Source: Nanobdellota archaeon (GTDB taxonomy: Archaea > Nanobdellota > Nanobdellia > Parvarchaeales > Parvarchaeaceae). Taken from it: a stretch of 64,000 bases of DNA. Below, piece after piece: positions 9,397-61,224 of the stretch. The notes beneath the pieces are model-generated. The model had not been told where the DNA came from. It made no database searches and saw nothing but the letters and a program-made list of their open reading frames with translations. Where the stretch lies: NCBI GenBank assembly GCA_021807125.1, contig JAKAPK010000001.1, forward strand, positions 54,354 through 118,353, in the 5' to 3' direction. How positions within the stretch are numbered: position 1 is the first letter of the stretch; each line of letters begins with the position of its first letter. Position numbers and translations under genes: made by a program.

Positions 9397-10521
9397 ATGG
9401 AAATACCTCAAAAATATATTGAAGCTTACCGCAAGAAGTATGGGGAAGATGCGGATATTGAAGAACTTAGGAAAGTTTACGAAAGGTCTTTGATAACTAC
9501 GGGAGAAGACGTCGGTGTAATAGCTGCACAAAGCATAGGTGAGGCAAGTACTCAGCTTACGTTAAGAACAAAGCACGCCGCGGGTTTGACGGCAATAAAC
9601 ACAACGTCAGGACTTCCAAGATTGGTTGAAGTGTTCGATGCAAAGAAGGAGATATCTACACCGACAATGGAAATATATCTAAAGCCGGAGCAGGGACATT
9701 CAAAACAGAAAGCTTACGATTTTGCGAACAGTATAATAGAGGTAAAAGCGAAGGAACTGTTCTCTTCATACGCCCTTTCATTGAGCAAAAAATCCATAGA
9801 ATTTTATTGTAATAGGGACGCAATAAAGGCCTACGGTTTGACTTTAAGGGATATACAGGCAAAATTCGAGAAGCTGGTAAAAAGCATGTCCGTAGAGGGA
9901 GATACTCTGATAATAAAAGACAAATCGGCGGATTCAGTAAAGAAACTCATAAAACTTAGGAATAAACTTAACGATGAGACAATATCGGGAGTATCAGGGA
10001 TACACCGCGCGATAATTAATTCGACACAGGACGGCGAATTTTGGATAAAAACGGTCGGAAGCAACCTTCAGCATGTGCTTTCGCTTGAGGAGGTTGACCA
10101 AAGCAGGACCTCGTCCAACGACGTTATGGAAGTTGCAAAGGTGATAGGGATAGAAGCCGCACGAAATCTTATAATCGAAGAAGTCGCAAAAGCACTTCAG
10201 ACCGGCGGTCTTACTGTAGACTACAGGCATATACTTTTAATAGCTGATGCGATGTGCGTAGACGGCGAAGTAAGGGGAATCGGAAGGTATGGGTTGAGCG
10301 GTGAAACAGAATCTGTTTTTGCGAGAGCATCGTTTGAAATACCATTGAAACACCTTATGGAAGCTAGCATGTTCCATGAAACCGATGCATTTAAATACGT
10401 TGCTAATAATGTTATGTCTAATCAGGTAATCCCAATAGGAACTGGTTCAGTAAAGTTAGTGGTAAAAGAGAATGGAAAAGAAGCTAAAACAGATGATACA
10501 GGAAAAGATAAAGGGCAATAA
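9397..10521 (+). CDS. rpoA2: RNA polymerase subunit A'' (Rpo1C)
   Basis: 374 aa. [23 protein letters not shown] trigger-loop region. Position directly after rpoA1. Confidence 0.9.
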
Positions 10522-10729
10522 AGTCTACATAGGACTTAATTCTACGCTTAGAGCATCAAAGAGCGGTCAGGTGTCAGCAATAGTATTCGCTTCGAATGCA
10601 AGCGAGGATCTTATAAACACACTTAACACTTTAGACATTCCAAAATATGAATATGAGGGTGACAGTGAAGCGCTTTCCATCGCGCTTGGAAAATCGTTCA
10701 ACATAGTCGTTCTAGGTCTTAAAAAGTGA
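10472..10729 (+). CDS. rpl30e: Ribosomal protein L30e (eL30)
   Basis: 85 aa. [23 protein letters not shown]...[19 protein letters not shown]. Conserved position between rpoA2 and nusA. The true start may be the ATG at 10493. Confidence 0.8.
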
Positions 10730-11136
10730 AATATATGAATATAAAACTAGACAGCGAAACACTATCTTCCATGAGCGTATTCTCGAACACAACGGGCGTT
10801 ATGCCTAAAGACTGTATGCAACTGGATGATAAGTTCCTATTCGTCGTTAATCAGGGCCAGGCTGGAATGTCTATAGGAAAAAACGGCGTCAACGTCAAGA
10901 TGCTCGAAAAGATGTTCAGCAAAGAAGTATTGATAGTCGAGTATGCAGACGATCCAGTAAGGCTTCTGGAAAATATAATAAGACCAGTAAAAGTGCTTTC
11001 CGGTTACGTTACGGAAACAACAAACAGCAAAAAAATACAGGCTTCTATAGATGGCAAACTCGCTTTAAGCAGGCTCAGGATAGCAAAAACTCTGATGCAA
11101 AGGTATTTTAATATAACTGATATCAATATTAAATAA
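10726..11136 (+). CDS. nusA: Archaeal NusA-like protein (two KH domains)
   Basis: 136 aa. A KH-type GKNGVNVKMLEKMF motif. Canonical position L30e-NusA-S12. Confidence 0.8.
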   Translation: MKYMNIKLDSETLSSMSVFSNTTGVMPKDCMQLDDKFLFVVNQGQAGMSIGKNGVNVKMLEKMFSKEVLIVEYADDPVRLLENIIRPVKVLSGYVTETTNSKKIQASIDGKLALSRLRIAKTLMQRYFNITDINIK

Positions 11137-11140
11137 ATTT

Positions 11141-11575
11141 ATGACAAAAACACGCGGATTATTCAACGGAAGGATGTTGCTAAAGAGAAAGGCAAAAGTC
11201 AGATTCAGCAAGAGAAGAAGTAAGGCACATTTTATAGGCTCTTGGAGGAAATACGACCCCCTTGAAGGAGCACCGCAGGCAAAAGGCATAGTTCTTGAAA
11301 AAGTCGAAATAACTCCTAAGAAGCCATCTTCTGGTAAAAGAAAATCCTGCAAAGTGCAGCTTACTAAGAACGGAAAATCAATAACGGCATACATTCCATT
11401 CAGCAAGGGAGTCTCATTTGTCGATGAACACAATGACGTAATGGTAGAAAGGATAGGCGGAGCACAGAAGGGTGCACGCGGTGATCTCCCAGGGGTCAAA
11501 TTCATAGTCACTAAGGTTAACGGGATATCAATAAAGGAACTTGTAAAGGGCAGGAAACAGAAGCCAGTAAGGTAG
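11141..11575 (+). CDS. rps12: Ribosomal protein S12 (uS12)
   Basis: 144 aa. DPLEGAPQAKGIVLEKV.ITPKKPSSGKRK.CKVQL..NGK.ITAYIP is the classical uS12 sequence. Confidence 0.95.
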   Translation: MTKTRGLFNGRMLLKRKAKVRFSKRRSKAHFIGSWRKYDPLEGAPQAKGIVLEKVEITPKKPSSGKRKSCKVQLTKNGKSITAYIPFSKGVSFVDEHNDVMVERIGGAQKGARGDLPGVKFIVTKVNGISIKELVKGRKQKPVR

Positions 11576-11580
11576 ATCTA

Positions 11581-12276
11581 ATGGAAGAGCAAACAAACGA
11601 AAATGTGAATAAAGAGCAGCCAGTGCAAGTCCAGGAAAAGACAGAGACAAAGAAAGAGAAACATAAAGAGATTAAGGAAGAGGTCTTCAGTAACATAAAA
11701 CTTTTCGGTAAATATTCTTTGACAGCAGAAGTTAAGGATGCTGGTCTGAAAAATGTAATTGGGCTCAAGCCGCTTGTTCTCCCAAAGAGCGCAGGCAGAC
11801 TTTCTCAGCAGAGGCTTGCAAGAACTAGAGTAAACATAGTGGAACGTTTGATAGGTCACTTAATGGTACCTGGCCATAAGGGAAAGAAGCACCTTCGAAC
11901 ATCAAAAATCATGTCAGGGAGATACTACACAACGTATAAACTTGTTGAGGAAGCGTTTGAGAAAATAAGTAAAGCTGGACAGGATCCTATAGAAGTACTA
12001 ATCAGGGCAATAGAAAATTCAGCGCCAAAAGAAGAAGTGATGGGATTGCTTATCGCAGGACAGAGGCTTTCGAAACAGGTAGATGTTTCTCCTATCCGAA
12101 GAGTAGATCTTGCACTAAGATGGATTGCCCAGGGCACATTCCAATCATCGTTTTCAGGTAAAAAGGCTTCGGATGCGCTTTCTGAAGTGCTTATGTCTGC
12201 TGCACAGAACAAAGATGTGTCTTTCCCGGTATCAAAGAGGATCGACACGGAACGTCAGGCAGCATCAAGCAGATAA
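11581..12276 (+). CDS. rps7: Ribosomal protein S7 (uS7) with a ~38-aa Lys/Glu-rich N-terminal extension
   Basis: 231 aa. The conserved core starts at IKLFGKYSLTAEVKDAGLKNVIGL. There is no internal ATG/GTG/TTG between the annotated start and the core. Confidence 0.9.
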   Translation: MEEQTNENVNKEQPVQVQEKTETKKEKHKEIKEEVFSNIKLFGKYSLTAEVKDAGLKNVIGLKPLVLPKSAGRLSQQRLARTRVNIVERLIGHLMVPGHKGKKHLRTSKIMSGRYYTTYKLVEEAFEKISKAGQDPIEVLIRAIENSAPKEEVMGLLIAGQRLSKQVDVSPIRRVDLALRWIAQGTFQSSFSGKKASDALSEVLMSAAQNKDVSFPVSKRIDTERQAASSR

Positions 12277-12283
12277 ATTTAAT

Positions 12284-12808
12284 TCAAAGAATCTGTTCTA
12301 TCGTTTTTATGTACTTGCTATAGTCTACTCTGTCAGATACGGTTTTTCCGGCTATGGCAAGCTTCATCTTTTTTACAGTCTTACGCAGATTGCTTGTGTT
12401 GTCTATCTGCATAACCTTATCATGCAATTCGCACGCCTCTATATATTCGCCGTCAATCGCTTCGAATAATACGTTGTCACATATTTTTTCTTTGCTGTAT
12501 CCCCTTTTGGACAGTCTTTTAATTAGCACGTCCGGCCTACACCTTAGCACTACAAATAACCCAATCTTATTTGACGTTAAAAAGTGCGACATGTGAGACA
12601 CTATCACGCTGTTGTCCTTTAGTCCTAGCCCGACCAACTTGTTTAGTTCCGCAGGACTTATTTCCTTTGTTAAACCTCCCGAACCAAGCAATTTATTCAC
12701 GTCAACTACATTATAGCCAGTTTCACGAGAAAAAAGACTAGCTACAGAATGTTTTCCAGTACCTGGGACGCCAGTCAAAGCGATAATCATAATATAAATT
12801 CTTGTCAC
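12284..12808 (-). CDS. Adenylate kinase isoenzyme 6 / Fap7-like NTPase
   Basis: P-loop IIALTGVPGTGKHS, then VSHMSH and VLRCRPDVLIKRLSKRGYSKEKI.DN, typical of Fap7/AK6. The likely start is the ATG at 12790 (MIIALTG). Confidence 0.8.
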   Translation of the reverse strand: MTRIYIMIIALTGVPGTGKHSVASLFSRETGYNVVDVNKLLGSGGLTKEISPAELNKLVGLGLKDNSVIVSHMSHFLTSNKIGLFVVLRCRPDVLIKRLSKRGYSKEKICDNVLFEAIDGEYIEACELHDKVMQIDNTSNLRKTVKKMKLAIAGKTVSDRVDYSKYIKTIEQIL

Positions 12809-12824
12809 ACCTTATAATAAGTTT

Positions 12825-14204
12825 ATGTCATCCAGCTCAGACACACCTGATGAATATAAAATAGCAGTCGCGTTGTCGCAGGACGACAGTGACTTGGAGA
12901 AATTATTAGCTGATTATCCGAGCCTCCTAAAATACAGGAATTATCTTAATTCTAATGCGGCAAAAAAATATGGAATTCGTGGCGTATACCGCTTTTATTC
13001 AGGTCTGATAGGCGTATTAGCACCGGAACTCATAATACGCCACGGTACGGTGAAACCACACGGACTAAAATATAAAATAAAAAAAGCGATTGGGTTGCTT
13101 TCCCCGTTAAACTCAAGCACAGCCGTATACAATAAGCTGGGGAATTACACAAAAAGTGATTCAATACTTAATGGGGTAAGGGTATCCTCGCTTCTAGCCC
13201 ATTTTATGGCTTATTTCTTGCCGGCGCTATTTTTCATACCAGCGCAGCTTATGGCCGGCAATGGCGAGCAAACACTTACAGAGACCCTTCTTTCTCAGAC
13301 CGGCCTATACATGTTCTCTTCGATAGCCCTTTCTGGTTTTTTGATGGGTTCGCTCGCAAATTACGTAGTAAAAAAAGTTAGTTTTTGGAAGAGAAATAAA
13401 GTTTCGATTAGCGAAGAAGAGATATCAGAGGACTTAGCTTCATATTCAGTTGAACTTAATCGAATAGTTAACGATTATAAAATTAGATTCTCCAACGACA
13501 AAGAAACGGCAGTAACTCTAGAAGAGTTTGTCGGTCTGTACAAAATGCTGTCTTTTCCCATATCAATGAAGACAGAATGGGACATAGCTGAGACAAGAGG
13601 ACAAGAAGAAAAAACGTTAGCTTCCATAAAAAATGTTTTAAAAAAAGTGCCAAATCGGAAATCTATCAAATACTCGTTTTCTAATTCACCAAACGATGTA
13701 GGAAGCGCATTCTGGTTTAGGCCGTTTCTGGGCAGGCTTCATAAACGGAAAATAGTCGGAAAAACGACCATAAACATCAATGATGTCGGAAGCAATCTTG
13801 AGTATTCCTTATATCTTGGACACGAGTTTTCACACTTAGCCGGAGCCGCTAGCGAACCAATAGCCGAATTTTATGCGAAGAAGATATTGGAGGATCTGTC
13901 CGAAAATTACCCGCACGAAGGATATGACATGTTACGCGCAACCGAAAGATTATGCGATGTAATAAACGCATTCTACTATCTTGTAAGGGACCCAAAAAAA
14001 CTGCGTAAATCCCTAAAGAAAGCGGGCGTTCCCTTGTTCATTTTGGAAGCGTTTGACAATGATTATAACTCCATCCCAATCCAATTTTATACTTCGGAGG
14101 AAGACATATACAATCCAGATCTATTATATAAGTCATTTGTGTATTACGTATCGAAACGAGAAGAAAGGGGCGAATTAAAGTTAAAGAGGGGCATATATAG
14201 GTGA
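12825..14204 (+). CDS. Membrane protein with HExxH zinc-peptidase-like motif (DUF3810-like), copy 1
   Basis: 459 aa. Central hydrophobic helices. The C-terminal region has LGHEFSHLAGAASEPIAEFYAKK (HExxH plus a downstream E). Paralogous to the next gene. Confidence 0.6.
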   Translation: MSSSSDTPDEYKIAVALSQDDSDLEKLLADYPSLLKYRNYLNSNAAKKYGIRGVYRFYSGLIGVLAPELIIRHGTVKPHGLKYKIKKAIGLLSPLNSSTAVYNKLGNYTKSDSILNGVRVSSLLAHFMAYFLPALFFIPAQLMAGNGEQTLTETLLSQTGLYMFSSIALSGFLMGSLANYVVKKVSFWKRNKVSISEEEISEDLASYSVELNRIVNDYKIRFSNDKETAVTLEEFVGLYKMLSFPISMKTEWDIAETRGQEEKTLASIKNVLKKVPNRKSIKYSFSNSPNDVGSAFWFRPFLGRLHKRKIVGKTTININDVGSNLEYSLYLGHEFSHLAGAASEPIAEFYAKKILEDLSENYPHEGYDMLRATERLCDVINAFYYLVRDPKKLRKSLKKAGVPLFILEAFDNDYNSIPIQFYTSEEDIYNPDLLYKSFVYYVSKREERGELKLKRGIYR

Positions 14205-14279: not shown

Positions 14280-15626
14280 ATGGTAAAGACAAAAATAAGA
14301 CTTGAACAGTTAATCCCAAACGATTATAAAACTGAATATTTGGATTACATAAACGACGCTGCCATATCCAGATACGGGATGGAGGGCGGACTAAGATTTT
14401 ACGAGGGAGTAAAGGAGACTTTCTTAGGTATGCAAGACCATACTCTCGTTAGACATCCCAACAGACCGAAGAAGACAAGTCTTCTATCAAAACTCTTAAC
14501 TATCGAACCTATACATTTTTTCCTAACTGTTTTCGACCGAACGGTGGCTAAATCGAAGCACAGGCTTCTTTCCGCATCTGCAGGCGCCTTCGCTCTTACA
14601 ACATACTTGCAAAGTATTATGTTCTCTTTAGGTGCCTTAAGTGCGCAGGCAGCGACCGGTTTGCCTATACAAGAAATTTTTAGTTCAATACCTTCTTCGG
14701 TACTTATCTCTATGTTTTTAGTAGGTCCAATTAGTTCTGCCGTCTTTATAGGCGCGGCTCAATCAACACTGGTAGGTTTTAATAAGATAAGAAATAGTGG
14801 CAAAGGAATAACACTTGAGGAAATAGAATCGGATATACAAAGATACTCCAGTGACTTTAGGAAAGTATGGGATTCTTACGTAGATAACTTTTCTAAAAAT
14901 AAGACCGAGGATCCTTCAGTAGCAGAGATAAACGGCATGTACATGCTTGTCACCACACGAGAAAGTATTTTCGCAAACAAGAACAAGCGCAACTTGAAAG
15001 TGCACGATAGATCGATACTAGATACCATAAAGAGAGTGTACAAAAAGGAGATTTCTTCAAATGTTATTTTTCATCCAGATATAAGAAATATAGGTGGGGT
15101 GACTTTATTACCATCCGTTCTTTTAGGGCTTTCAACAAGAAAATCGGATTATATTTTCGGACCGGTTATATTAAATAAGTTAAGACTATACGCGAATCCG
15201 AATTATGACGATGCACTTGCCCATGAACTAGCGCATGCGGCAGGGTTTATGTCAGAATCACGCGCAAATTATTTTGCACTTAAAGTCATGGACGAGTTAA
15301 ATCACGAGCACCCGCTTGAAGGATATGATATATACTCTTCTGTAAATAGACTATGTTTTGCAGTTTCGGCCTTATCAGATAAATTAAAGGACGAAGAGCG
15401 GTTTCAAGAGCGGCTCACCGCTTTAAGCGTGCCGAAATTCGTATTTCAGGCGATAAGATCTCCGTTTTCGCCGGAAATATCGCCTCTTCCCGGTCTAGAG
15501 GAAGCCCTTTCTGGGGAATTTGGCAAAATGAACGCCGAATTCTCAAAACAATATTCTACCAACACTTACTATGTGACTAAAAAGGTAGAAAAAGGCATGC
15601 TAAGACTCGATATGCATTCTTACTGA
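14280..15626 (+). CDS. Membrane protein with HExxH zinc-peptidase-like motif (DUF3810-like), copy 2
   Basis: 448 aa. LAHELAHAAGFMSESRANYFALKVM. It shares motifs with copy 1: RYG..G..RFY.G, P.EGYD......RLC, YYV.K..E.G.L.L. Confidence 0.6.
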   Translation: MVKTKIRLEQLIPNDYKTEYLDYINDAAISRYGMEGGLRFYEGVKETFLGMQDHTLVRHPNRPKKTSLLSKLLTIEPIHFFLTVFDRTVAKSKHRLLSASAGAFALTTYLQSIMFSLGALSAQAATGLPIQEIFSSIPSSVLISMFLVGPISSAVFIGAAQSTLVGFNKIRNSGKGITLEEIESDIQRYSSDFRKVWDSYVDNFSKNKTEDPSVAEINGMYMLVTTRESIFANKNKRNLKVHDRSILDTIKRVYKKEISSNVIFHPDIRNIGGVTLLPSVLLGLSTRKSDYIFGPVILNKLRLYANPNYDDALAHELAHAAGFMSESRANYFALKVMDELNHEHPLEGYDIYSSVNRLCFAVSALSDKLKDEERFQERLTALSVPKFVFQAIRSPFSPEISPLPGLEEALSGEFGKMNAEFSKQYSTNTYYVTKKVEKGMLRLDMHSY

Positions 15627-22690: not shown

Positions 22691-23032
22691 ATGGAAGGTA
22701 ACGTAATAAAAGAACGTAAAATAAGCGATATAAACATGGCAAACGACAATAGGGTGCGCGTTGTCGGCAAAATAGAGAAAATAGATCAAAAAACAGGCAT
22801 TTTTGTCATATCCGACGCAAGCGGTGCTAACCTTACATGCTTGCCTTCGCCAGTGCAGGAGAACATACCGCAGGCGGGCAGTTTGGTAGTATTGACAGGA
22901 AGAGCAACATCCGCTGGAGAAGAAGAAATTGAACTTCGCACTGAACATGTCGAACAAATATCCGAGAAAGAATATTTAAATTACTATAATTATTTAAATC
23001 TAAAGGAGGAACTGATTAAGCAATGGAAGTAG
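22691..23032 (+). CDS. OB-fold protein (single OB, RPA-small-subunit-like)
   Basis: 113 aa. VRVVGKIEKIDQKTGIFVISDASGANLTC...GSLVVLTGRA is a typical OB-barrel pattern. Overlaps the PCNA start by 10 nt. Confidence 0.5.
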   Translation: MEGNVIKERKISDINMANDNRVRVVGKIEKIDQKTGIFVISDASGANLTCLPSPVQENIPQAGSLVVLTGRATSAGEEEIELRTEHVEQISEKEYLNYYNYLNLKEELIKQWK

Positions 23033-23763
23033 AGATAAAAGACATAGAACTCTTCAAAAAATTGATGGATACTGTCGGCAGCCTGATGCAGGACGTGTCA
23101 CTTGACTTCAACGAGAGTGGATTCGCAGTTAGAGCGATGGATCCCGCAAACATAGCGATGATATTATTCGATGGTAAAAAAGGACTCTTCTCGAAGTTTG
23201 AAGTCGATAAACCAACAAAGATATCCGTTTCTCTGATAGATATGAACAGCATATTAAAGTTCGTTAGGAAGGACGACAGGCTAAAATTAACAGAAGCAAA
23301 AGGAAAACTGCACATGGATGTCCTCGGCAAAAATAAAATGAGTTTCGTTATACCTCTGATAGATGAGAATTACACCGCTCAAAAGATTCCGCAGCTTAAT
23401 TTCACCGCGGAAGCGACCCTTTTAAGTTCAGTCGTAAAGGAAGCACTAAAAGTAGGTTTAACAGTCGACGATTCTCTTTCATTCACTATAGATGGACACA
23501 AGCTATCATTAAGCGCAAAGAGTGAAGAGAAGGAATTTTTAGAAGAGCTGAACATAAACGAGAACAAAGAATTGTTTGACTTAAAGAGCGAAGGCCTGAC
23601 AAAGTCTAAATTCTCGATAGAGTACCTTAGCAAGTTTTTCGTTTCTATCGACCCGGAAAAGCAGGTCAAGCTTTCAATGTCTAACAACTATCCTTTGAGG
23701 CTGGACCACGAGTTCAGCGAAGACGCGAAGATAGCTATGGTTCTCGCGAACCGTCTTGAGTAA
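23023..23763 (+). CDS. pcn: DNA polymerase sliding clamp PCNA
   Basis: 246 aa. FKKLMDTVGSLMQDVSLDFNESGFAVRAMDPANIAMILFD and a two-domain length typical of archaeal PCNA. Confidence 0.85.
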   Translation: MEVEIKDIELFKKLMDTVGSLMQDVSLDFNESGFAVRAMDPANIAMILFDGKKGLFSKFEVDKPTKISVSLIDMNSILKFVRKDDRLKLTEAKGKLHMDVLGKNKMSFVIPLIDENYTAQKIPQLNFTAEATLLSSVVKEALKVGLTVDDSLSFTIDGHKLSLSAKSEEKEFLEELNINENKELFDLKSEGLTKSKFSIEYLSKFFVSIDPEKQVKLSMSNNYPLRLDHEFSEDAKIAMVLANRLE

Positions 23764-23778
23764 GCATCGACATTATAT

Positions 23779-24225
23779 TCACGGCCCTATAAAAAGCAAA
23801 CTGTCTTCATAGATATCTATATTTCTCAAAAGTTCAGGCAGACTTTGTATGTCCACACCGTAAATTTTGCCGCCAAACGAATTATACTTAAGCAGAGAGC
23901 TGCTTCTGTTTCTGGTTATCAATAATACAAAGATCTTTCTCTGGCCAAGGACACTTCTTTTTGCAATAAGCGCATTTGCACGGGAAACCTGACTTTTTAT
24001 AAAATCCTCTTCTTTTTTGGGAGATATATAAGAATGATCCTTGCAGTCTACTACGAAGCACTTGCCACTGTCGTAGGCTATAAGATCTATTTGGAACCGT
24101 TTCGGTTTATTTAGATGCAGGTCCTGTTCTACGGTGTAATCAAATTTATTGAAAATATCCGCTACATCATTTTCGAATTTTTTCCAATCTAATTTTTTCG
24201 CTTTGAAGTCCGCGTCAAAAAACAT
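23779..24225 (-). CDS. PD-(D/E)xK nuclease-fold protein (Hjc/Mrr-like)
   Basis: 148 aa. FENDVADIF (E), QIDLIAYD (D), FVVDCKDH (D-x-K), in the order and spacing of Hjc/restriction-endonuclease cores. Confidence 0.5.
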   Translation of the reverse strand: MFFDADFKAKKLDWKKFENDVADIFNKFDYTVEQDLHLNKPKRFQIDLIAYDSGKCFVVDCKDHSYISPKKEEDFIKSQVSRANALIAKRSVLGQRKIFVLLITRNRSSSLLKYNSFGGKIYGVDIQSLPELLRNIDIYEDSLLFIGP

Positions 24226-25599: not shown

Positions 25600-26664
25600 T
25601 TATTGCTGTTTAATGCTTGAATGAATTAGTTCTTTGAATTTCTCTATAAATCTATCCTTATCTTCTGCCCTTATAGTACAACCTGCTGCGGCATCGTGTC
25701 CGCCGCCTTCTCCCTCCATCGTCTGGAAGATTTGTCGGAAAATAGACGGAAGTTTTATTCTTTTGTCGTTAGTGCGCATGTTTAATCTTATGCTGTCACC
25801 GTGTATCTTTCGTATGAACACTATCACCTTATCATAATACTTTTGAGTATGACTGAGCGCCGTTGCAACAGAAGTCGAATACCTGCTTTTCTGTCCGCCA
25901 ATTTCGAAGAAATATATCAACTGATCTGAAGTTTCCGCTTCTTTTTCAAATTTTTCAGTTATTTCTTTGAAATGTCTGGCTATCTCTAGGCGCACTTTTT
26001 TTAGTTTTGGGTTGTTTATAAGTTCATCAACGGAATTGGCTATTAACAAATTTTCAAGAGCCTCTTCTAGGCCGCTTCTTCCGCCGTGTATCTGCATAGC
26101 GGTTATCGTTGAACTAGCACATCCAAAATCGTTGTCGTAGAGGAATACGTCATTCTTCAGTTTAACGTCGTATCTTTTTGCGGCCTCTTTTATGAATTCC
26201 GGGTTTTCTCTTCCACCTGAATCGCTGACTATGCCCACTGCAGCTATCCACATGGTGTCGTCACAGTACTCCCTCAATAGCTCGTATACAAGTAACGAAC
26301 AAGGTGTATACTTCTGGTCACTCCACATTTTAGGGTTTATGTAGAGTACGTTGCCGGGTTTAATAAGTTCATGGTGGTCAACTATACACAGATTGAATTT
26401 TTTAAAAAGCCGCAGATCGTCCTCCTTGACGAACATATCGCATATTATTATGTTATTATTGAATTCCGACAGATCCATGTTCTCAAAGTCTTCATAGTTA
26501 GTAGGTCGATAAGCGTATACGCTTTTTCCCATCGCGTTTATTGCTTTAGAAAGTATGGTAGCTGATGTTACCCCGTCACCATCAGTATGATAAAATATCG
26601 AGAAAGAGTCACCGGATTTTAGAAAGTCTATGAACTTGCTTCTTTGCTCGTCAAAATTAGCCAT
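25600..26664 (-). CDS. DHH/DHHA1 family phosphoesterase (RecJ/NrnA-like), copy 1
   Basis: 354 aa. FYHTDGDGVTSATIL (DHH motifs I/II), CIVDHH (motif III), GGGHDAAAG (DHHA1). Confidence 0.8.
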   Translation of the reverse strand: MANFDEQRSKFIDFLKSGDSFSIFYHTDGDGVTSATILSKAINAMGKSVYAYRPTNYEDFENMDLSEFNNNIIICDMFVKEDDLRLFKKFNLCIVDHHELIKPGNVLYINPKMWSDQKYTPCSLLVYELLREYCDDTMWIAAVGIVSDSGGRENPEFIKEAAKRYDVKLKNDVFLYDNDFGCASSTITAMQIHGGRSGLEEALENLLIANSVDELINNPKLKKVRLEIARHFKEITEKFEKEAETSDQLIYFFEIGGQKSRYSTSVATALSHTQKYYDKVIVFIRKIHGDSIRLNMRTNDKRIKLPSIFRQIFQTMEGEGGGHDAAAGCTIRAEDKDRFIEKFKELIHSSIKQQ

Positions 26665-26692
26665 TAGGGTTTATACACACCGCCCTGTACTC

Positions 26693-28816
26693 TTAAGAAT
26701 ATTTTGATTTTACTATTCTTTCTAGTCTTGAACCGCCATTCTCTTTTAATATTTCATGCATAGCCTGTGAAGGTATGAATACGTGCCTAATATAAGATGT
26801 ACCTATGTTTGTATCCGAGGGAACATAAGTCATTTCGAATCCTTTTGTGAAATCGTTCTTGGATATTATTTCGCTTTCAAAAGTCGTTCTGTCTTGTAAC
26901 GCTGCAGAAGTGCATGCGAACATAGTTTTCCATTTTCCCCCGACTTTCTTTGATACATAGACTGCATGTTCCTCGTGGCAGTCACCGGCAAAAGCGAAAT
27001 CTACATCGTTCCCAGCCTTTATTGCCTTTTTAAGCAATGCAGTACCTGCATCGACTCCACCACGATAACCAGGACTGTGTAGCATGTACGCTTTGTATCC
27101 TGCTATATCTACAGGGGAATTATCCCTAGACACTTGGTCAGTATATATTACGTTTGCGCCAGCAGCACTGAATACAGGCCCATACATACCAGTTTCGCTA
27201 GCATGTGATGCTGCCTTTTGTACATGGTTTCCCGGGGCTGCCGCAACGTTTTTATAATTCTTAGCTACTCTTGAGAATACTCTGCATGCCTGCGCATTTT
27301 GCATGCCCAAATCCGGTAAAGGAGTGCCATAAACTAGCCTTCTGAAAAGCTCTAATTTTTCTTCCGCAGAGCTGGAGTTCTCTAGTTTATCCAATAAATC
27401 ATCATATATCGGTCTCTTTGGCCAAAGTATATCGGTCCAACTCGCTTTGTCCCCTCCTGCATGAAGTATGTCGCCTAGGAGGAGCAACATTCTTTTGTCT
27501 CTAGGCATTTTACTCTTATTTGATATAATTTCAAATGCTTCCATTAATTCGTAAGTAGTTTCAAGACTTGGAGAACCGACATGCGTGTCAGAGAGATGTG
27601 TTATTTCATACAATTCTTTTTCTGGACTGCTTCTCAGTTTAGCAGTATTTATCTTGCCCTTTAACCCATCAAAACTTATGTGTTCCATATCGGCGATGTT
27701 GTTGTTATGTAGAGTGAATATCATCATTGCACTGTCTTCCGGTTGGTCTACACGTTTTGATTCCCTAGTTTTGTTCCAGCCGGTCATCTTTCGTATTTGC
27801 CCGTCTAAATCCTGTAACGGCCCGCAATTTAATAGGTATACCGGGTTTTTCTTCGATGGCTTATCCACGGATGTGAAACTAGTAGCAGATTCGTCGCCTC
27901 GAAGATATATGTCTGCTAGTCTTCCCTGTAATTCGTCTAAATTAAGTTTTTCTATCGACATTACCGTACCTCTTTCGGTAGGTTTGCCTTCACTGTTTCC
28001 TGCGTAGCGACCATTTATAGCGTGCATTGCCCTTATTTTTACGCCTTTGATTACTATGTCGTTTTCATATCTTTTTAGTGTGTTTATGTCACCGCTTTCA
28101 TCATCCCCAACTATTTCCAAATCAGCTTTGTTTTTACCTTCTGAGAATATAGACGTTATCCACTGTTTGTATATGTTCAATGCAGTGTCCTTTATACCTT
28201 GTTTGTCTTTGTTTTTCCACTGAGATGCCTTAACATTGTAACTTTTCTGTAAGAAATCAAGAAGATCTGTATCCACTCCCCTTATATTTGACGCAAGGGA
28301 TTCGTCTTTCTCTTCCTTTGATGATGACTTGTCAAAGTAAGCACTGACCTTTTCAAAAACAGATATCAGCGTTTCAACGTTCTTGTAATCATTTTCTGAG
28401 AAAATGTAGTATATTTTTGCGCCTTTCTTTCGCGATTGTGAAACAACTTCACGCATCTGTATCTTAGCTAGCCTCACTGCTTCTTCAAGAGAGTCTATAG
28501 AGTCCGAATCATTATTTTCTTTTACTGCTTTGTAAATTTTGTCGCCGTATCGTTCTTTTAAGCGATCCTCAAGTAAATCGAGTCTTTCACCGCGGCGCTT
28601 GCTGTATTTATTAGGAACTTCTGCAAGACCGCCGTTTATTACTATTGCATCTATCTTGCCGTTATATTGTCTTATTTGTTCACCGACACCGTATAATACA
28701 TCTGGGTCACTTAATTTTGTAGCTAGTTCGAGTTCGGACAGTAAAACTAATCTTAATTTTACGTTTTCTCCCTTATCCAAAATCTCATCTAACTTAGACG
28801 AACCCTTAATAGACAT
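26693..28816 (-). CDS. Tandem calcineurin-like metallophosphoesterase (degenerate N-terminal copy plus intact C-terminal copy)
   Basis: 707 aa. The C-terminal half has HLSDTHVGS, LLLGDILHAG, APGNHV, YMLHSPG and FAGDCHEEH, i.e. all MPE metal-ligand motifs. The N-terminal half has the same spacing with substituted residues (VLLSELE, VINGGL, FSENDY, RAMHAING). Confidence 0.65.
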   Translation of the reverse strand: MSIKGSSKLDEILDKGENVKLRLVLLSELELATKLSDPDVLYGVGEQIRQYNGKIDAIVINGGLAEVPNKYSKRRGERLDLLEDRLKERYGDKIYKAVKENNDSDSIDSLEEAVRLAKIQMREVVSQSRKKGAKIYYIFSENDYKNVETLISVFEKVSAYFDKSSSKEEKDESLASNIRGVDTDLLDFLQKSYNVKASQWKNKDKQGIKDTALNIYKQWITSIFSEGKNKADLEIVGDDESGDINTLKRYENDIVIKGVKIRAMHAINGRYAGNSEGKPTERGTVMSIEKLNLDELQGRLADIYLRGDESATSFTSVDKPSKKNPVYLLNCGPLQDLDGQIRKMTGWNKTRESKRVDQPEDSAMMIFTLHNNNIADMEHISFDGLKGKINTAKLRSSPEKELYEITHLSDTHVGSPSLETTYELMEAFEIISNKSKMPRDKRMLLLLGDILHAGGDKASWTDILWPKRPIYDDLLDKLENSSSAEEKLELFRRLVYGTPLPDLGMQNAQACRVFSRVAKNYKNVAAAPGNHVQKAASHASETGMYGPVFSAAGANVIYTDQVSRDNSPVDIAGYKAYMLHSPGYRGGVDAGTALLKKAIKAGNDVDFAFAGDCHEEHAVYVSKKVGGKWKTMFACTSAALQDRTTFESEIISKNDFTKGFEMTYVPSDTNIGTSYIRHVFIPSQAMHEILKENGGSRLERIVKSKYS

Positions 28817-28990
28817 CTGCTCCTCCCTCTTAATATTAATGATATTTGATATATTGAAACGTTTGATTATAAATACTTTTTAGATATTACGATTGTATTA
28901 CGCTAAGAAAAATAGAAATTAAATTTATTAAATTATGTCTAAATTTCGGTCGCAATAATTAATAAATACTAGGTGTAATCATCTGTTTTT

Positions 28991-30661
28991 ATGAATTTTA
29001 AGTTTATGTCTAAGAAAGGTCGCGGAAATACATTCAAACAGAGGTTAGACTATCTTCTCGACGGTAGTGTAAGTTATAGAACTAACAAAAGAAAAAACTA
29101 CACAATATATGATCTTGATTTAGACATGAAAGAATGCACACTTCGCCATGTAAATAACCCGCTATTTGAAAAGCTTAGCGAATTAGAAATAAACGAATTC
29201 AGTAACTTATTTGGAGCGAACCATGAGAGGGATCAGAAACCGGTTGAAAACCCGATATTTCTTTATAATAACTCCGTAGCTTTCCGCTCCTTATATATAT
29301 CCCTTGATAATCTTCGCTCGCTGGGAAGATTAGAAGGGGTCTTAAGGAGCGCCAGGGAAAGACTATCACAGGTTTACGGCGGGATCGAAATCGAATATAA
29401 CTATGATAGGATAAACCAAGAATCTGGGTTCAGTTTAGTAAAAAAATCAATATTCGGTTTAAAAAGCGAGATAATGGGCCTTAGCTTAACCCCCGTTCGC
29501 GTTAAACAAGATCCAAAATCTATCTTAAAATATTCATTCATCAACTTCAATGTAAACAGAAAATTTATAAAACATCATAATGAAATAATAAAGACCTTTT
29601 CAGATCTATGGGAATGTATGATTTTACCGGAGAAAAGCGAGTTAATAGACCTTGTAAATAAAGTTAATGAAAACGAGATGCAAAATGCCCAAAATAACCC
29701 CGGAAACGGTCTAAAAACAAAGAACGATTCGCAAGAATCAGAATCGCATACTCTTGAGGATAGAATGTCGATGTTAGGCCTAGTGGAATATCCAAAGACA
29801 ACGAGTATGGACAGCGTCGGCGGATATCAAAAAATAAAGGAACGACTGGAAAAGCAATTGTTTATACCCTTCTCAAATTCTAATATACTAGATGAAATAA
29901 TAGCCGCTTCCGGTGGTTTGAATCTCCCCCATCCAAAGGCAATGTTGTTTTATGGTCCGCCAGGAACAGGCAAGTCTCTGATGGCAAGGGCTTCAGCAAG
30001 CAAAAGCGGTATAAACTTTCTTTATCTCAATGCAATGGAGTTATACACAAAATGGTTTTCTGAATCTGCAAAGAGGATGAAAGAAGCACTAGATACCGTT
30101 TCAGAATACACTCAGAAACATGGAAAAACAATACTATTCATTGACGAGCTAGATTCTATAGGAAAAAGGATAGACCCTTCTTCTTCAACGGATACTGAAG
30201 ATAATCGAGTTGTGAATGTATTGTTGACGAAACTTAGCGGGTTAGATACTTCAGAAAATGATAAGAACCTTGCTCTAATAGGTGCAACAAACTTTTATGA
30301 CAAGAAAACCCTGGAGCCATTAATAGACGTGGCCCTGAAATCACGGATGGGGGAAAAGATATTTTTCCCACCGCCGTCATTTATAGATCTAAAAGCCATA
30401 TGGAAAGTATACGAACCAAGACTTTCCGATGACGACACAAGCATGTTAGCAAGAGAGTCCGATGGCTTTTGCGGCAGGGATGTAGAAATAACTATAAATA
30501 ACGCAAGAAACAATTTTTTAGCGGATATAGTCGAGAAAAAAAGTCAGGAAAGGAAAATAACCATAGATTATTATTTTAGGGCTATATCAGAGCTGAAATC
30601 AAATCCGGGACAAATTAAACAACAAGGCGAAAAAGAGAATTTGAAAAACTTATACTCTTAA
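28991..30661 (+). CDS. Classical-clade AAA ATPase with a ~280-aa unrecognised N-terminal region
   Basis: 556 aa. Walker A GPPGTGKS, Walker B ILFIDELDS, SRH-like ATNFYDKKTLEPLIDVALKSRMGEKIFFPPPS. The alternative start is at 29006. Confidence 0.8.
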   Translation: MNFKFMSKKGRGNTFKQRLDYLLDGSVSYRTNKRKNYTIYDLDLDMKECTLRHVNNPLFEKLSELEINEFSNLFGANHERDQKPVENPIFLYNNSVAFRSLYISLDNLRSLGRLEGVLRSARERLSQVYGGIEIEYNYDRINQESGFSLVKKSIFGLKSEIMGLSLTPVRVKQDPKSILKYSFINFNVNRKFIKHHNEIIKTFSDLWECMILPEKSELIDLVNKVNENEMQNAQNNPGNGLKTKNDSQESESHTLEDRMSMLGLVEYPKTTSMDSVGGYQKIKERLEKQLFIPFSNSNILDEIIAASGGLNLPHPKAMLFYGPPGTGKSLMARASASKSGINFLYLNAMELYTKWFSESAKRMKEALDTVSEYTQKHGKTILFIDELDSIGKRIDPSSSTDTEDNRVVNVLLTKLSGLDTSENDKNLALIGATNFYDKKTLEPLIDVALKSRMGEKIFFPPPSFIDLKAIWKVYEPRLSDDDTSMLARESDGFCGRDVEITINNARNNFLADIVEKKSQERKITIDYYFRAISELKSNPGQIKQQGEKENLKNLYS

Positions 30662-57706: not shown

Positions 57707-60118
57707 CTACGACACAGTCTGCCAATAAGTTACATTTCTGACCAGGGTGTTATTCGTAAAGGCAGTGATCTTATATGTGCCAGCCGATAGGGTGGAAGTA
57801 TACATTGTTTTATTAATCGATAGGCTCTTTACGACTAGTCCATTCAAAGTTATCCCCACATAGCCATAAGGAAGAGTAGCAGTGAAGTTTGAGGCCACGC
57901 CGCCTGCTATGGAACTGTTTCCGTCCAGCACGCCGTTCAAATATAGGTAAGTCTTTCCCACTCGCCCTGAGGGCATTACGCCGTTAGGGGGGAAATCCCG
58001 TATCCTTGCCCATTTTAATGTCATCGCAAAGCCTCTCGTGCCGCCGGTATTTGTGAATTCCACGTAATTGTCAGCGGTAGCCGGCGCCTGCGCTTCTGAC
58101 TGGAGAGCATATTCCTTCGACATATTTGAATAGTTCAGAGAGTATACCGCATTTTTCCCATTGTTTGAAACAGTGAATAGATCTGGCGTATTATAAGCTA
58201 CATTGTAGTGGGTAGATGTAACGGAAGATCCGGAAGTAGTGTACCCCCATGAATAATTAGAGGTATACTGTGAAAGCCATCCATTTGCAGCATAATTTGC
58301 GCTGCTAGTCGGGTTTGAAGAATAATAAAGTCCATTGACCGTATAAGATCGTTTTGCAGCTTCGGTAAAGTTGCCGAGCCAGTCAAGCGTAGTGTTAGCC
58401 CCGAAATAAGAATTTGAATCAATGAACTCATTAACACTCGTCGATGCGGGAAGGTACACCCCGTGGTTTATGGTGACACTGGCACTTGTCCAGCCACTCG
58501 GCGCAGAGGGACCAGTAAAATTGCTGTATAATAGGTCAAAAACACTAGCGCCATCGTCATATTCGCCATAAATGGGCGATAACAGAGCAGATTCACCAGT
58601 CGTTAGTTTGTTGAAATCGTTCAAATTTGGATTCTGTATGACCATGAAGACGGTCTTTGTACTTAAAGCCGGTATCGTACCCACTTTCAGCCAGTATAAA
58701 CTGCTTTTAGATGCATTAGAGCCACCGTGCTCCAGCCACGAATCGACTACCGAGCCGTTCGGCCACATGAAATAAACGTTTGTGAGGCTCTTACTCTCTG
58801 CGTAACCGTATGCGGACGAGTTTATTGTCACATTCTGCTGAAAATCGGACAGAGTGGGAACATTTTGCGCGTTAGCAAAAGTTATTGGCAGCATCGGATT
58901 CCATATATGCAGAACTCTCGCTATAGAAGAAGGCGTATAATTCTGGTTGCCGTTTGTAGACAGATTGTAAAGATACGAACCCATATAAGTTTTGCTAGCT
59001 GTTCCCGAAAGTATGTTTTTATATATCAATGAGTTATTTATCGACATGTTTGCAAAGAGCTGGTTATTTACCGTCGTTATGCTGAACGTAGTCGTCCTAA
59101 GTACTCTGTTGAAAGTCGTGTTTTGACTTTGGGGAAGCGTCAAAGTCAGTATAGGGACAGCTTTATCTATTGTCTCCCAAAAAGTGATGTTGTTCACACC
59201 GCTGAGGTTGCTGAAAGCGGTGACTTTATACGTGCCGGCTGCCCGGAGTACCACATTTGTACTATAATTCTTTGCGAGTGGTGCGACAAGTACACCATTT
59301 ACGTAAATACCGACATATATTTTTATAGTGGAAGCGGTGAAGTTTGCATCCGTCCCGTATACTATGGAATTGTTAACGTCTTCAATACTGTTTAAAAACA
59401 GATTTAGCAGCGGCTTCTTTCCAGGTATACAGCTTGGAGATACAATATTGTACCCAGAAGGTACAATGTCTATCAGGTACGCATTGCTAAAGGAATTCAG
59501 TGTGATGTTGCCGTTAACGGTTCCGGTTGCGCCAGTGCTGAAGAGATAGCTCTGCATCTGTTGTCCAGACGTAGAGAGAACAGTAAGATTGAATTGCACG
59601 TTTGTAAGCACAGAGCCCGAATAATTGTAGAAACTGACTATGTACTGCATCTTGGAATTGTTGTATGTCTTGTATGAGTAATTTATGAATGATATGGGCG
59701 CGTTAACACCTATTTGTACTGCAGACGAGCCGTTGAACACAACGGTTTTAGCGTAAGCTGTGTATACACCAGTAGTAGTCGGTAAAAGCCCTTCAAGATA
59801 GACATTAGCATAACCAACGGCGCTGTGCGAAGATTCGCTTATTGTTATGGAATTCTGGCAGAACAGGCTGCCGCTAAGGTCAAGACTGCCAAATTGAAGG
59901 GGAAATGTCGAGATAGAACCTACTCCCTGGGATGAAACGTAGTTTGCCTCGGATACTATTGTATTAACGATGTTATTCGCTAAATTAGAGGCTGTGTTAT
60001 TATTTATCGCGGATGAATATGCAAAAAGATAATACATAAACGCCGCAATCACAGCCAAGCCTATACCTATGACTATCATGTATTCGGTATAAGTCTGCGA
60101 CTTTCTGCTTTTTCGCAT
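57707..60118 (-). CDS. Large surface protein with a class III (type IV pilin-like) signal peptide, a DUF2341-like domain and a duplicated C-terminal-type module
   Basis: 803 aa. N-terminus MRKSRKS/QTYTEYMIVIGIGLAVIAAF (Q+1, E+5, hydrophobic helix). Residues ~408-500 read PITFANAQNVPTLSDFQQNVTIN...LYWLKVGTIPALSTKTVFMVIQNPN. Asn/Ser/Thr-rich with ~35 N-x-S/T sequons by manual count. Confidence 0.7.
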   Translation of the reverse strand: MRKSRKSQTYTEYMIVIGIGLAVIAAFMYYLFAYSSAINNNTASNLANNIVNTIVSEANYVSSQGVGSISTFPLQFGSLDLSGSLFCQNSITISESSHSAVGYANVYLEGLLPTTTGVYTAYAKTVVFNGSSAVQIGVNAPISFINYSYKTYNNSKMQYIVSFYNYSGSVLTNVQFNLTVLSTSGQQMQSYLFSTGATGTVNGNITLNSFSNAYLIDIVPSGYNIVSPSCIPGKKPLLNLFLNSIEDVNNSIVYGTDANFTASTIKIYVGIYVNGVLVAPLAKNYSTNVVLRAAGTYKVTAFSNLSGVNNITFWETIDKAVPILTLTLPQSQNTTFNRVLRTTTFSITTVNNQLFANMSINNSLIYKNILSGTASKTYMGSYLYNLSTNGNQNYTPSSIARVLHIWNPMLPITFANAQNVPTLSDFQQNVTINSSAYGYAESKSLTNVYFMWPNGSVVDSWLEHGGSNASKSSLYWLKVGTIPALSTKTVFMVIQNPNLNDFNKLTTGESALLSPIYGEYDDGASVFDLLYSNFTGPSAPSGWTSASVTINHGVYLPASTSVNEFIDSNSYFGANTTLDWLGNFTEAAKRSYTVNGLYYSSNPTSSANYAANGWLSQYTSNYSWGYTTSGSSVTSTHYNVAYNTPDLFTVSNNGKNAVYSLNYSNMSKEYALQSEAQAPATADNYVEFTNTGGTRGFAMTLKWARIRDFPPNGVMPSGRVGKTYLYLNGVLDGNSSIAGGVASNFTATLPYGYVGITLNGLVVKSLSINKTMYTSTLSAGTYKITAFTNNTLVRNVTYWQTVS
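57710..57889 (-). repeat. Intragenic protein-level repeat, copy 2 (residues 744-803 of the 803-aa protein)
   Basis: NFTATLPYGYVGITLNGLVVKSLSINKTMYTSTLSAGTYKITAFTNNTLVRNVTYWQTVS aligns with residues 259-318. Confidence 0.6.
59165..59344 (-). repeat. Intragenic protein-level repeat, copy 1 (residues 259-318 of the 803-aa protein)
   Basis: NFTASTIKIYVGIYVNGVLVAPLAKNYSTNVVLRAAGTYKVTAFSNLSGVNNITFWETID. Shared pattern: NFTA...YVGI..NG..V.......T..L.AGTYK.TAF.N.....N.T.W.T. Confidence 0.6.
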
Positions 60119-60177
60119 ATAAGTGGTTGTTTTGCGCGCATTTAAGTTTTATAAGCCGTAACGCCCAAAATAAAAGT

Positions 60178-61224
60178 ATGACGTGGTACATATACACACA
60201 CAAAAAGGATTTGGACGGTATAACTTCTGCCGCCATTATGCAAAGATATCTCGATAAGAATAAGATAGCCGGACATATCGATTTTATAGATTATAGTCCG
60301 CTGGAAGAGTTAATGGAGATATTCGCAGGTGTCACAAAAATCCCAAAGGATTCTACATTGGTCTTAGTGGACTTCGGCGCGAACAAGACGATGGAAAGCA
60401 CCGCGCTAAAAGCATTTGAGGAGTTGCACGATAAAAACGTTAAAATATATTGGCTTGACCATCACACGTGGGACACAAAGTTTAAAGATGCTCTATCTAA
60501 ATACGCGGAGATAACGATTTCGGGCTCAAAAGAGCATTGCGGCGCCGAGTTGACTTACGCTAAGTTCATGCACGATGACAGTATTTCGGAGGGATTGGCA
60601 AAATTAGGAAGGGATGCGGACTTAGATATGTGGGAAAAACAGCCGCCGTTTCCAAATTTCGGTTTAACGGAATGCTTGGGAAACGTCATAACATACTATA
60701 ATTATATATCGAGGGGAGACATCAGAAAAAGACAAGAGCTTTTATTTTATATTGTAAAGAAGCTTTCAACGGCAAGTTTGGAGAGAATATTGACAAAGGA
60801 CTTTAAGAACCCTTTTTTGGACGAGCGACTGAAAGAGGACTATTTCGCATACAAGAGACTGGAGGAATCCGAACTCAGAAAATGCGTAGATTCCGCAGAA
60901 AACGTTAAATTTGGAAAGTATAAAGTAGTATTAGGTTTTGCAGAGCCGATAATTTCGACGACGATATCCGGAAGAAACTTAATATCACGTTACAATGCCG
61001 ATGTCGCGATAGTTCTAAGCGAATACGGCTCTTTTGGGATAAGGCGCAGTAATGAAAGAATAGAGGTAGACTGCGGCGCTATAGCGCGTCTTTTTAATGG
61101 TGGAGGACACGTGTTTGCGGCAGGCGGCGAACTAGGATTCAAGATAAAAAATAAAGAAGACCTTGAAAAAGCGAAAGAGCTTATAAAATCCAGATTAAAC
61201 CCGTTTTTTGCTGAGCATTCATAG
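60178..61224 (+). CDS. DHH/DHHA1 family phosphoesterase, copy 2
   Basis: Starts at MTWYIYTHKKDLDGITSAAIM (DHH motifs I/II), then WLDHH and GGGHVFAAG. The ORF-track start at 60127 adds 17 aa with no similarity. Confidence 0.75.
   Translation: MTWYIYTHKKDLDGITSAAIMQRYLDKNKIAGHIDFIDYSPLEELMEIFAGVTKIPKDSTLVLVDFGANKTMESTALKAFEELHDKNVKIYWLDHHTWDTKFKDALSKYAEITISGSKEHCGAELTYAKFMHDDSISEGLAKLGRDADLDMWEKQPPFPNFGLTECLGNVITYYNYISRGDIRKRQELLFYIVKKLSTASLERILTKDFKNPFLDERLKEDYFAYKRLEESELRKCVDSAENVKFGKYKVVLGFAEPIISTTISGRNLISRYNADVAIVLSEYGSFGIRRSNERIEVDCGAIARLFNGGGHVFAAGGELGFKIKNKEDLEKAKELIKSRLNPFFAEHS

Follow-up and report, generated by a model that had tools for sequence, protein, structure and literature searches.

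What does a large archaeal protein do when it joins a predicted live phosphoesterase domain to a dead copy of the same fold, and does the nuclease-like gene directly behind it belong to the same pathway? The question is raised by contig JAKAPK010000001.1 of the Nanobdellota archaeon assembly GCA_021807125.1, of which positions 54,354 to 118,353 were analysed (the window, 64,000 nucleotides (nt) in full; coordinates below count from its first letter). A gene on the minus strand (26693..28816, stop codon included) encodes a 707-aa protein with two metallophosphoesterase (MPE) folds in tandem. It is followed on the same strand by a gene (25600..26664) for a 354-aa RecJ-family DHH/DHHA1 phosphoesterase without a CID domain, identified from Pfam, NCBIfam, PDB and motif matches. 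An initial annotation of the window had proposed these two open reading frames (ORFs), and both lie where it placed them (28816..26693 and 26664..25600), 28 nt apart. The tandem MPE protein is a new architecture inside a known superfamily, without a name in the databases searched, and we tentatively read the pair as a DNA-processing module.

By its motif set, the C-terminal half of the protein (residues 399-707; 26696..27622, minus strand) apparently belongs to the MPE superfamily, and its invariant ligands predict catalytic activity. The five MPE motifs DxH, GD, GNH(D/E), H and GHxH occur in order within the blocks SDTH (residues 409-412), GDILH (448-452), GNH (529-531), LHS (579-581) and GDCHEEH (611-617), giving D410/H412 as the ligands of motif I, D449 of motif II, N530/H531 of motif III, H580 of motif IV and D612/H614 of motif V. 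D410, H412, G448, D449, G529, N530, H531, H580, D612 and H614 are invariant when the window protein is aligned with its 28 full-length homologues (29 sequences), and D410, H412, G448, D449, H531, H580 and H614 are still invariant in relatives of ~20% identity. Motif III reads GQH in some distant members, with N530 replaced by Q; the conserved form of motif V is G-D-x-H, which aligns with the canonical G-H-x-H and appears as GHYH or HNH in distant relatives. All the blocks that the initial annotation listed as metal ligands are present, but H617, the last histidine of GDCHEEH, is not conserved. Pfam Metallophos (PF00149) matches residues 405-532 of the window protein just below its cut-off (E 1.1e-3; 19.9 bits against 21.5), is passed by the relative P0037 (28.3 bits), and is matched by 10 of 15 diverse family members at E <= 1 (best E 2.9e-6).

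The N-terminal half (residues ~18-398; 27623..28765, minus strand), assigned from a single-domain model, Foldseek, hhalign and conservation, repeats the block order of its neighbour with the ligands replaced, as had been claimed. The blocks SELE (27-30), NGGL (61-64), SEND (140-143) and MHA (264-266) are all present, with SELE standing for DxH, NGG for GD, SEND for GNH and GDES for GHxH. Modelled alone, this half folded with a predicted local distance difference test (pLDDT) value of 77 and a predicted template-modelling score (pTM) of 0.81, and 36 of its 37 top PDB matches in Foldseek were MPE-fold structures (best E 3.2e-5, probability 1.00), so that a check for the MPE fold in this half came out in its favour. 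The matches comprised Mre11 (E 3.2e-5), Pol31 of Pol delta and Pol zeta, DP1 and Dpb2, followed by POLD2, SMPDL3A, LpxH and Rv0805, with B-subunits, including Pol alpha B, recurring. An AlphaFold (AF2) model of the whole protein was also confident (pLDDT 83.4, pTM 0.87), and in the models both halves share one order of elements (strand, helix, strand, an insert of four to five helices, strand, helix and a run of strands), the large helical inserts falling between strands 2 and 3 in N-terminal and C-terminal halves alike.

The 707-aa protein arose through internal duplication of an MPE domain. Profile alignment of one half against the other with hhalign gave E 3.2e-5 over 273 colinear columns, the full length of the halves, using a diverse alignment of 54 sequences, and paired E28 with D410, E30 with H412, H265 with H580, and G307-D308 with G611-D612. 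Because ligand positions are placed opposite each other, the block-by-block correspondence of the two halves that had been proposed is right, and with it the suggestion of a duplication in which one copy was inactivated. The signal emerged solely with the 54-sequence alignment, which includes distant members; BLASTP of the N-terminal against the C-terminal half returned a best E of 0.2, which is not significant, and hhalign on the 29 close sequences alone gave P 0.45, at which the duplication is not visible.

Judged from its model, the N-terminal half is an MPE fold without metal ligands, catalytically dead and not decaying. Pairwise identity averages 57% here and 52% in the C-terminal half; the N-terminal half contains 40 invariant columns, and its helical insert holds an invariant WK(N/T)xDKxGIKD motif (residues 200-210). 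Across the wider family, N146 and P279 are the sole invariant residues of this half. A dead MPE domain that is more constrained than its live twin is a natural example of a pseudo-enzyme domain becoming a scaffold, the same step that gave rise to the B-subunits of eukaryotic replicative polymerases.

Sequence searches place the family far from any named one. A word-indexed search of 5.8 billion proteins recovered 29 homologues, all full length (707-761 aa) save one partial, and the named ones were labelled 'hypothetical protein' or evidently misannotated. Searched exhaustively with a profile, 1.84 billion cluster representatives yielded just 41 proteins at E <= 1e-3, none of them a generic metallophosphoesterase, so the family is both rare and remote from its own superfamily. 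An NCBIfam scan of the 707-aa protein gave no match, sequence queries of the PDB, made both with the protein and with the family profile, gave chance matches only, and the DP1/B-subunit (PF04042) and Mre11-specific Pfam models had no match at E <= 1 in 15 diverse members. Pfam likewise found no domains in ten further distant relatives, nine of which are 815-966 aa long, and a literature search for an archaeal MPE-RecJ operon or for tandem MPE proteins returned nothing relevant. The initial annotation had not recognised a characterised family in this architecture, and that judgement holds across Pfam, NCBIfam, PDB sequence and Foldseek searches, none of which confidently matched the whole protein to a named family.

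Structure offers closer neighbours. DP1 of the Pyrococcus abyssi DNA polymerase PolD (PDB 5ihe, 6hms), which has the MPE (phosphodiesterase) fold in common with it, supplied the top eight PDB matches of the whole 707-aa model in Foldseek (E 8.6e-7 to 1.5e-5), followed by Rv0805, POLD2, SMPDL3A, MJ0936, Mre11 and Dpb2. The likeness to DP1 lies within the domain and is not a shared architecture, because the match has a template-modelling (TM) score of ~0.24 and a root-mean-square deviation of ~16 Å. Among viral models, the best matches were phage MPE proteins, several of them annotated as DP1-like or SbcD/Mre11-like. In the largest clade of the family, motif II reads GGDMVDGG, which resembles the GDxVDG of DP1. 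In the eukaryotic B-subunits (Pol31/POLD2, Dpb2) a dead MPE domain persists in a scaffolding role, and the N-terminal half appears to be a similar case. Unlike DP1 and the B-subunits, the 707-aa protein has two MPE domains per chain, large helical inserts in both halves, no oligonucleotide/oligosaccharide-binding (OB) fold, no PF04042 match and no detectable sequence similarity to them; where those proteins would carry an OB fold, its N-terminal half is an MPE fold. We rejected identity with DP1 on the missing OB fold and PF04042 match. No ORF of the size of DP2 was found in the window or within 10 kb on either side of related loci.

The Mre11/SbcD proteins (such as Thermotoga maritima Mre11; PDB 4o43, 3qg5) are the best Foldseek neighbours of the N-terminal half. 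Mre11 is a dimer of two MPE domains, an arrangement that the tandem protein could mimic in one chain, and the motif II of the window protein, GDILH, resembles the GDLFH of Mre11. Unlike in Mre11/SbcD, one of the two domains in the 707-aa protein is catalytically dead. No gene of the Rad50/SbcC (SMC) type adjoins the MPE gene in the window or in eight related loci, and identity with Mre11 was rejected for want of such a neighbour and of a Mre11-specific Pfam match. Beside one distant member, P0041, there is a canonical pair of Mre11-like (417 aa) and Rad50-like (785 aa) genes, 1.5 kb downstream with a prolyl-tRNA synthetase gene between (positions 9760-13363 of locus L009). Because P0041 coexists with this separate pair, the tandem family is not simply Mre11. 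The literature that we searched held no lineage-specific statement on canonical PolD or Mre11 in Parvarchaeales.

Going by its sequence affinities, the product of the downstream gene belongs to the archaeal RecJ lineage, in a shortened form that lacks CID, and is not a NrnA. Pfam DHH, with 34.8 bits over a cut-off of 28.1, and DHHA1, with 50.6 bits over 25.9, both match, DHH_CID does not, and the catalytic motifs are intact (D28xD30, D76, D96-H97-H98, D148 and G320-G-G-H323); across 32 distinct orthologues, conservation of the DxD, D, DHH, D and GGGH motifs is 95% or higher. Among the NCBIfam models RecJ_archaeal scores best, with 94 bits, far under the cut-off of 360, and GAN reaches 29 bits of the 850 required (NF053576, NF053575), so the protein falls outside both equivalogs. 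The NrnA nanoRNase/pAp phosphatase model (NF053633) gives 14.8 bits against a cut-off of 350. The best PDB sequence matches are MjaRecJ2 (E 5.4e-8), another archaeal RecJ-like protein, PfRecJ and GAN, with the PAP phosphatase 8a8k at E 0.33. The nearest relatives outside the order are 443 aa long, carry DHH, CID and DHHA1 domains and score 337 bits on RecJ_archaeal. The RecJ assignment follows from these affinities together with the CID-bearing relatives. The partner shares DHH, DHHA1 and all catalytic motifs with the archaeal RecJ family (MjaRecJ2, PfRecJ, GAN/Cdc45-like), from which it differs in being ~90 residues shorter and in lacking the CID domain. It had initially been described as RecJ/NrnA-like; the first half of that label stands and the second does not. 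A protein identical to this ORF is present in public assemblies, on contigs of up to 367 kb.

A second DHH/DHHA1 protein in the window (365 aa; 60127-61224, plus strand) likewise lacks CID and has a weak N-terminal match to RecJ_archaeal (41.8 bits); its best PDB matches are NrnA-like 'exopolyphosphatase-related' proteins (E 0.16), and it resembles the operon protein at the level of motifs only, as a remote relation. Divergent from it lies an 803-aa ORF (57707-60118, minus strand) without a Pfam match, which is probably a surface protein, given its high content of Asn, Ser and Thr and a hydrophobic segment at its N terminus. We considered it as a paralogue of the MPE protein and rejected this, as it is unrelated to the MPE family.

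The family is centred on Parvarchaeales (ARMAN-4/5) and limited to one small clade of archaea. When one genome per species (GTDB r232) was scanned, 35 loci with the tandem MPE gene came up, a lower bound because the scan was built on two peptide patterns. Nearly all of these records go under the names Candidatus Parvarchaeota, Parvarchaeum (ARMAN-4, ARMAN-5), Acidifodinimicrobium or 'Nanoarchaeota archaeon', the last from acid-mine and hot-spring samples, and no label falls outside these and neighbouring DPANN names. Distant members from archaeal metagenome-assembled genomes, at 19-22% identity and, among those aligned, 681-854 aa, retain both domains in their layout as well as the C-terminal motifs. 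Genomes are very small in Parvarchaeales and other DPANN archaea; the source archaeon is an acid-loving member of that order. A large, strongly conserved gene without a database name is likely indispensable in genomes of that size, and the presence of this one in housekeeping synteny across 35 species-level genomes suggests a core function.

Is the DHH gene a true partner? ORFs were called in all fetched loci and searched with both window proteins. Of 34 Parvarchaeales loci with sufficient downstream sequence, 33 have the DHH gene directly downstream of the MPE gene and on its strand. The spacer is mostly ~20-70 nt, and the adjacency persists while MPE identity drops to ~34%. In the window, the 28-nt spacer (26665..26692, minus strand), scanned on that strand, contains no terminator-like site, and the two genes are probably co-transcribed, to judge from their layout. 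In the region upstream of the MPE gene (28817..28880, minus strand), read from the sequence with its function assigned by inference, a GGAGG-type ribosome-binding site lies ~5 nt before the ATG and a TATA-like box, TTTATAAT, ~50 nt upstream of the gene.

The reading that we favour, and hold tentatively, is that the two genes form a lineage-specific two-nuclease module of Parvarchaeales that would process DNA at replication forks or DNA ends. An MPE nuclease domain would have been duplicated internally to give the 707-aa protein, in which the C-terminal copy, with its complete two-metal site, would be the catalyst and, by structural analogy, a DP1- or Mre11-type exo/endonuclease cutting phosphodiester bonds. 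The N-terminal copy would most likely be a rigid binding platform for the substrate or a partner, because it has lost its ligands yet is under purifying selection at least as strong as that on its twin; precedents are the second protomer in the dimer of Mre11 and the inactive MPE domain carried by the B-subunits of eukaryotic polymerases. The downstream RecJ-type DHH exonuclease may then degrade the single strand exposed by the MPE enzyme, or act with the opposite polarity. That the proteins act as nucleases, that DNA is their substrate, that they are coupled physically or functionally, and which process they serve in the cell are all things that we infer, as is the Mre11-plus-RecJ type of end processing of which the pair had initially seemed reminiscent.

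We favour this module because the best structural neighbours of the whole protein and of the N-terminal half include enzymes that act on nucleic acids, because Mre11 and the B-subunits offer precedents for the dead domain, and because the DP1-GINS15-GAN complex of Thermococcus unites an MPE exonuclease with a RecJ-like nuclease in one assembly (PMC6741145). Also in its favour are the complete ligand set of the C-terminal half, the duplication, the constraint on the dead half, the close same-strand spacing of the DHH gene, the RecJ affinities and intact motifs of the partner, and the housekeeping synteny. PCNA belongs to the same gene block, as do a small protein with an OB fold and one with a NERD domain. 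If the MPE and RecJ-type proteins do form a real complex, it would be a new nuclease module in archaeal replication or repair, and would show reduced symbionts rebuilding that machinery.

A number of observations pull the other way. Nucleotides, cyclic nucleotides and phosphomonoesters are substrates of MPE active sites too, and Foldseek values of E 1e-7 to 1e-3 with TM 0.2-0.4 fail to separate nuclease-type MPEs from Rv0805, SMPDL3A, LpxH and purple acid phosphatases. The partner is missing the CID domain typical of CMG-associated GAN/Cdc45, and no PIP-box-like motif was seen on reading the sequences by eye. One Parvarchaeales-like locus, L044, has lost the DHH adjacency and has a different context, and no DHH gene lies near five distant family members, which occupy other housekeeping contexts. 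Synteny extends over the whole block throughout the order (seryl-tRNA synthetase (SerRS), MPE, DHH, EF-1beta, PTH2, NERD protein, PCNA and the small OB-fold protein), its remaining members being generic housekeeping genes (SerRS, EF-1beta, PTH2), and because the synteny runs from SerRS to PCNA, the adjacency of MPE and DHH is not independent evidence of a shared function. Conservation of the gene pair, one of the checks that had been proposed, was found in the Parvarchaeales but counts for less than it seems.

A bolder form of the two-nuclease module, in which a single-chain pseudo-dimeric nuclease takes the place of canonical DP1 or Mre11 and its dead domain docks on the CID-less RecJ/Cdc45-like protein, and thence on the replicative helicase, strikes us as improbable. 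If true, such docking, with substitution for DP1 or Mre11, would be an independently evolved prokaryotic case of an inactivated MPE put to use as a scaffold in the replisome, with a parallel in the way the eukaryotic polymerase B-subunits arose.

Among the alternatives to a DNA-processing module, salvage of nucleotides or oligonucleotides survives best, although we think it unlikely. Here the DHH protein would be a nanoRNase/pAp phosphatase-like exonuclease acting on short oligonucleotides, the MPE protein would hydrolyse (cyclic) nucleotides, dinucleotides or nucleoside phosphates, and the pair would supply a host-dependent cell unable to make its own nucleotides. Parvarchaeales have indeed been described as host-reliant with limited metabolic potential (PMC10134863). 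DHH/DHHA1 proteins of the partner's size include NrnA-type enzymes, one orthologue is annotated 'nanoRNase/pAp phosphatase', the lack of a CID domain fits such an enzyme, and the better Foldseek matches of both models include Rv0805, which is a cyclic-nucleotide phosphodiesterase. Against this, the partner's affinities are with RecJ, both by NCBIfam score and by PDB match, DP1 has a ~1000-fold better E-value than Rv0805 for the whole 707-aa model, and a strongly conserved dead domain of 400 aa is hard to explain in a small-molecule hydrolase. If salvage is the true role, the pair is relevant to the way in which archaea that depend on a host use foreign nucleic acids as food.

It is also doubtful that the pair reflects inherited gene order only, with functions that are unrelated and the 707-aa protein acting as a lone MPE hydrolase. 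The order-wide synteny of the SerRS-to-PCNA block speaks for this, as do the distant members in other contexts without a DHH gene and the locus that lost the adjacency. What speaks against it is that strand and close spacing are maintained at nearly every Parvarchaeales locus despite the divergence of the MPE protein, and that the 28-nt spacer is free of a terminator-like site.

Least able to survive, and in our estimation improbable, is that the protein replaces DP1 or is an extreme derivative of it, its live domain proofreading for the replicative polymerase and its dead domain replacing the OB and N-terminal scaffold parts: the DP1 matches of the whole protein, the B-subunits (Pol31, POLD2, Dpb2, Pol alpha B) recurring for the dead half, the motif II of the largest clade and the assembly of DP1 with GINS and a RecJ-like GAN are what it offers, set against an active domain preceded by an MPE fold in place of an OB fold, the missing PF04042 match among the 15 members, the missing DP2-like gene in the window and the flanks of related loci, and a canonical DP1 that is presumably elsewhere in Parvarchaeales genomes, since PolD is reported across DPANN (PMC6355029).

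The window otherwise encodes archaeal housekeeping functions, among them split RpoB and RpoA, phenylalanyl-tRNA synthetase, aIF5B, RNase HII, an endonuclease III-like protein, PCNA, PTH2 and EF-1beta. The PCNA gene (23023-23763, plus strand) is overlapped at its start by 10 nt by a 113-aa OB-fold ORF (22691-23032, plus strand) with weak Ten1/RPA3-like Pfam matches, and this OB-plus-PCNA pair recurs in related Parvarchaeales loci. The NERD-domain (nuclease-related) ORF is 148 aa long (23779-24225, minus strand); the related loci examined have an ORF of similar size at its position, some with a weak NERD match. Divergent from the MPE gene is a 556-aa AAA ATPase (28991-30661, plus strand), whose N-terminal ~300 aa have no Pfam match and which was not found at the matching position in the other Parvarchaeales loci examined. 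Further away, two tandem paralogous ORFs of 459 aa (12825-14204, plus strand) and 448 aa (14280-15626, plus strand) are 25% identical (E 1e-25) and have weak DUF3810 matches only; the HE(F/L)xH motif that they have in common suggests a putative metalloprotease-like site.

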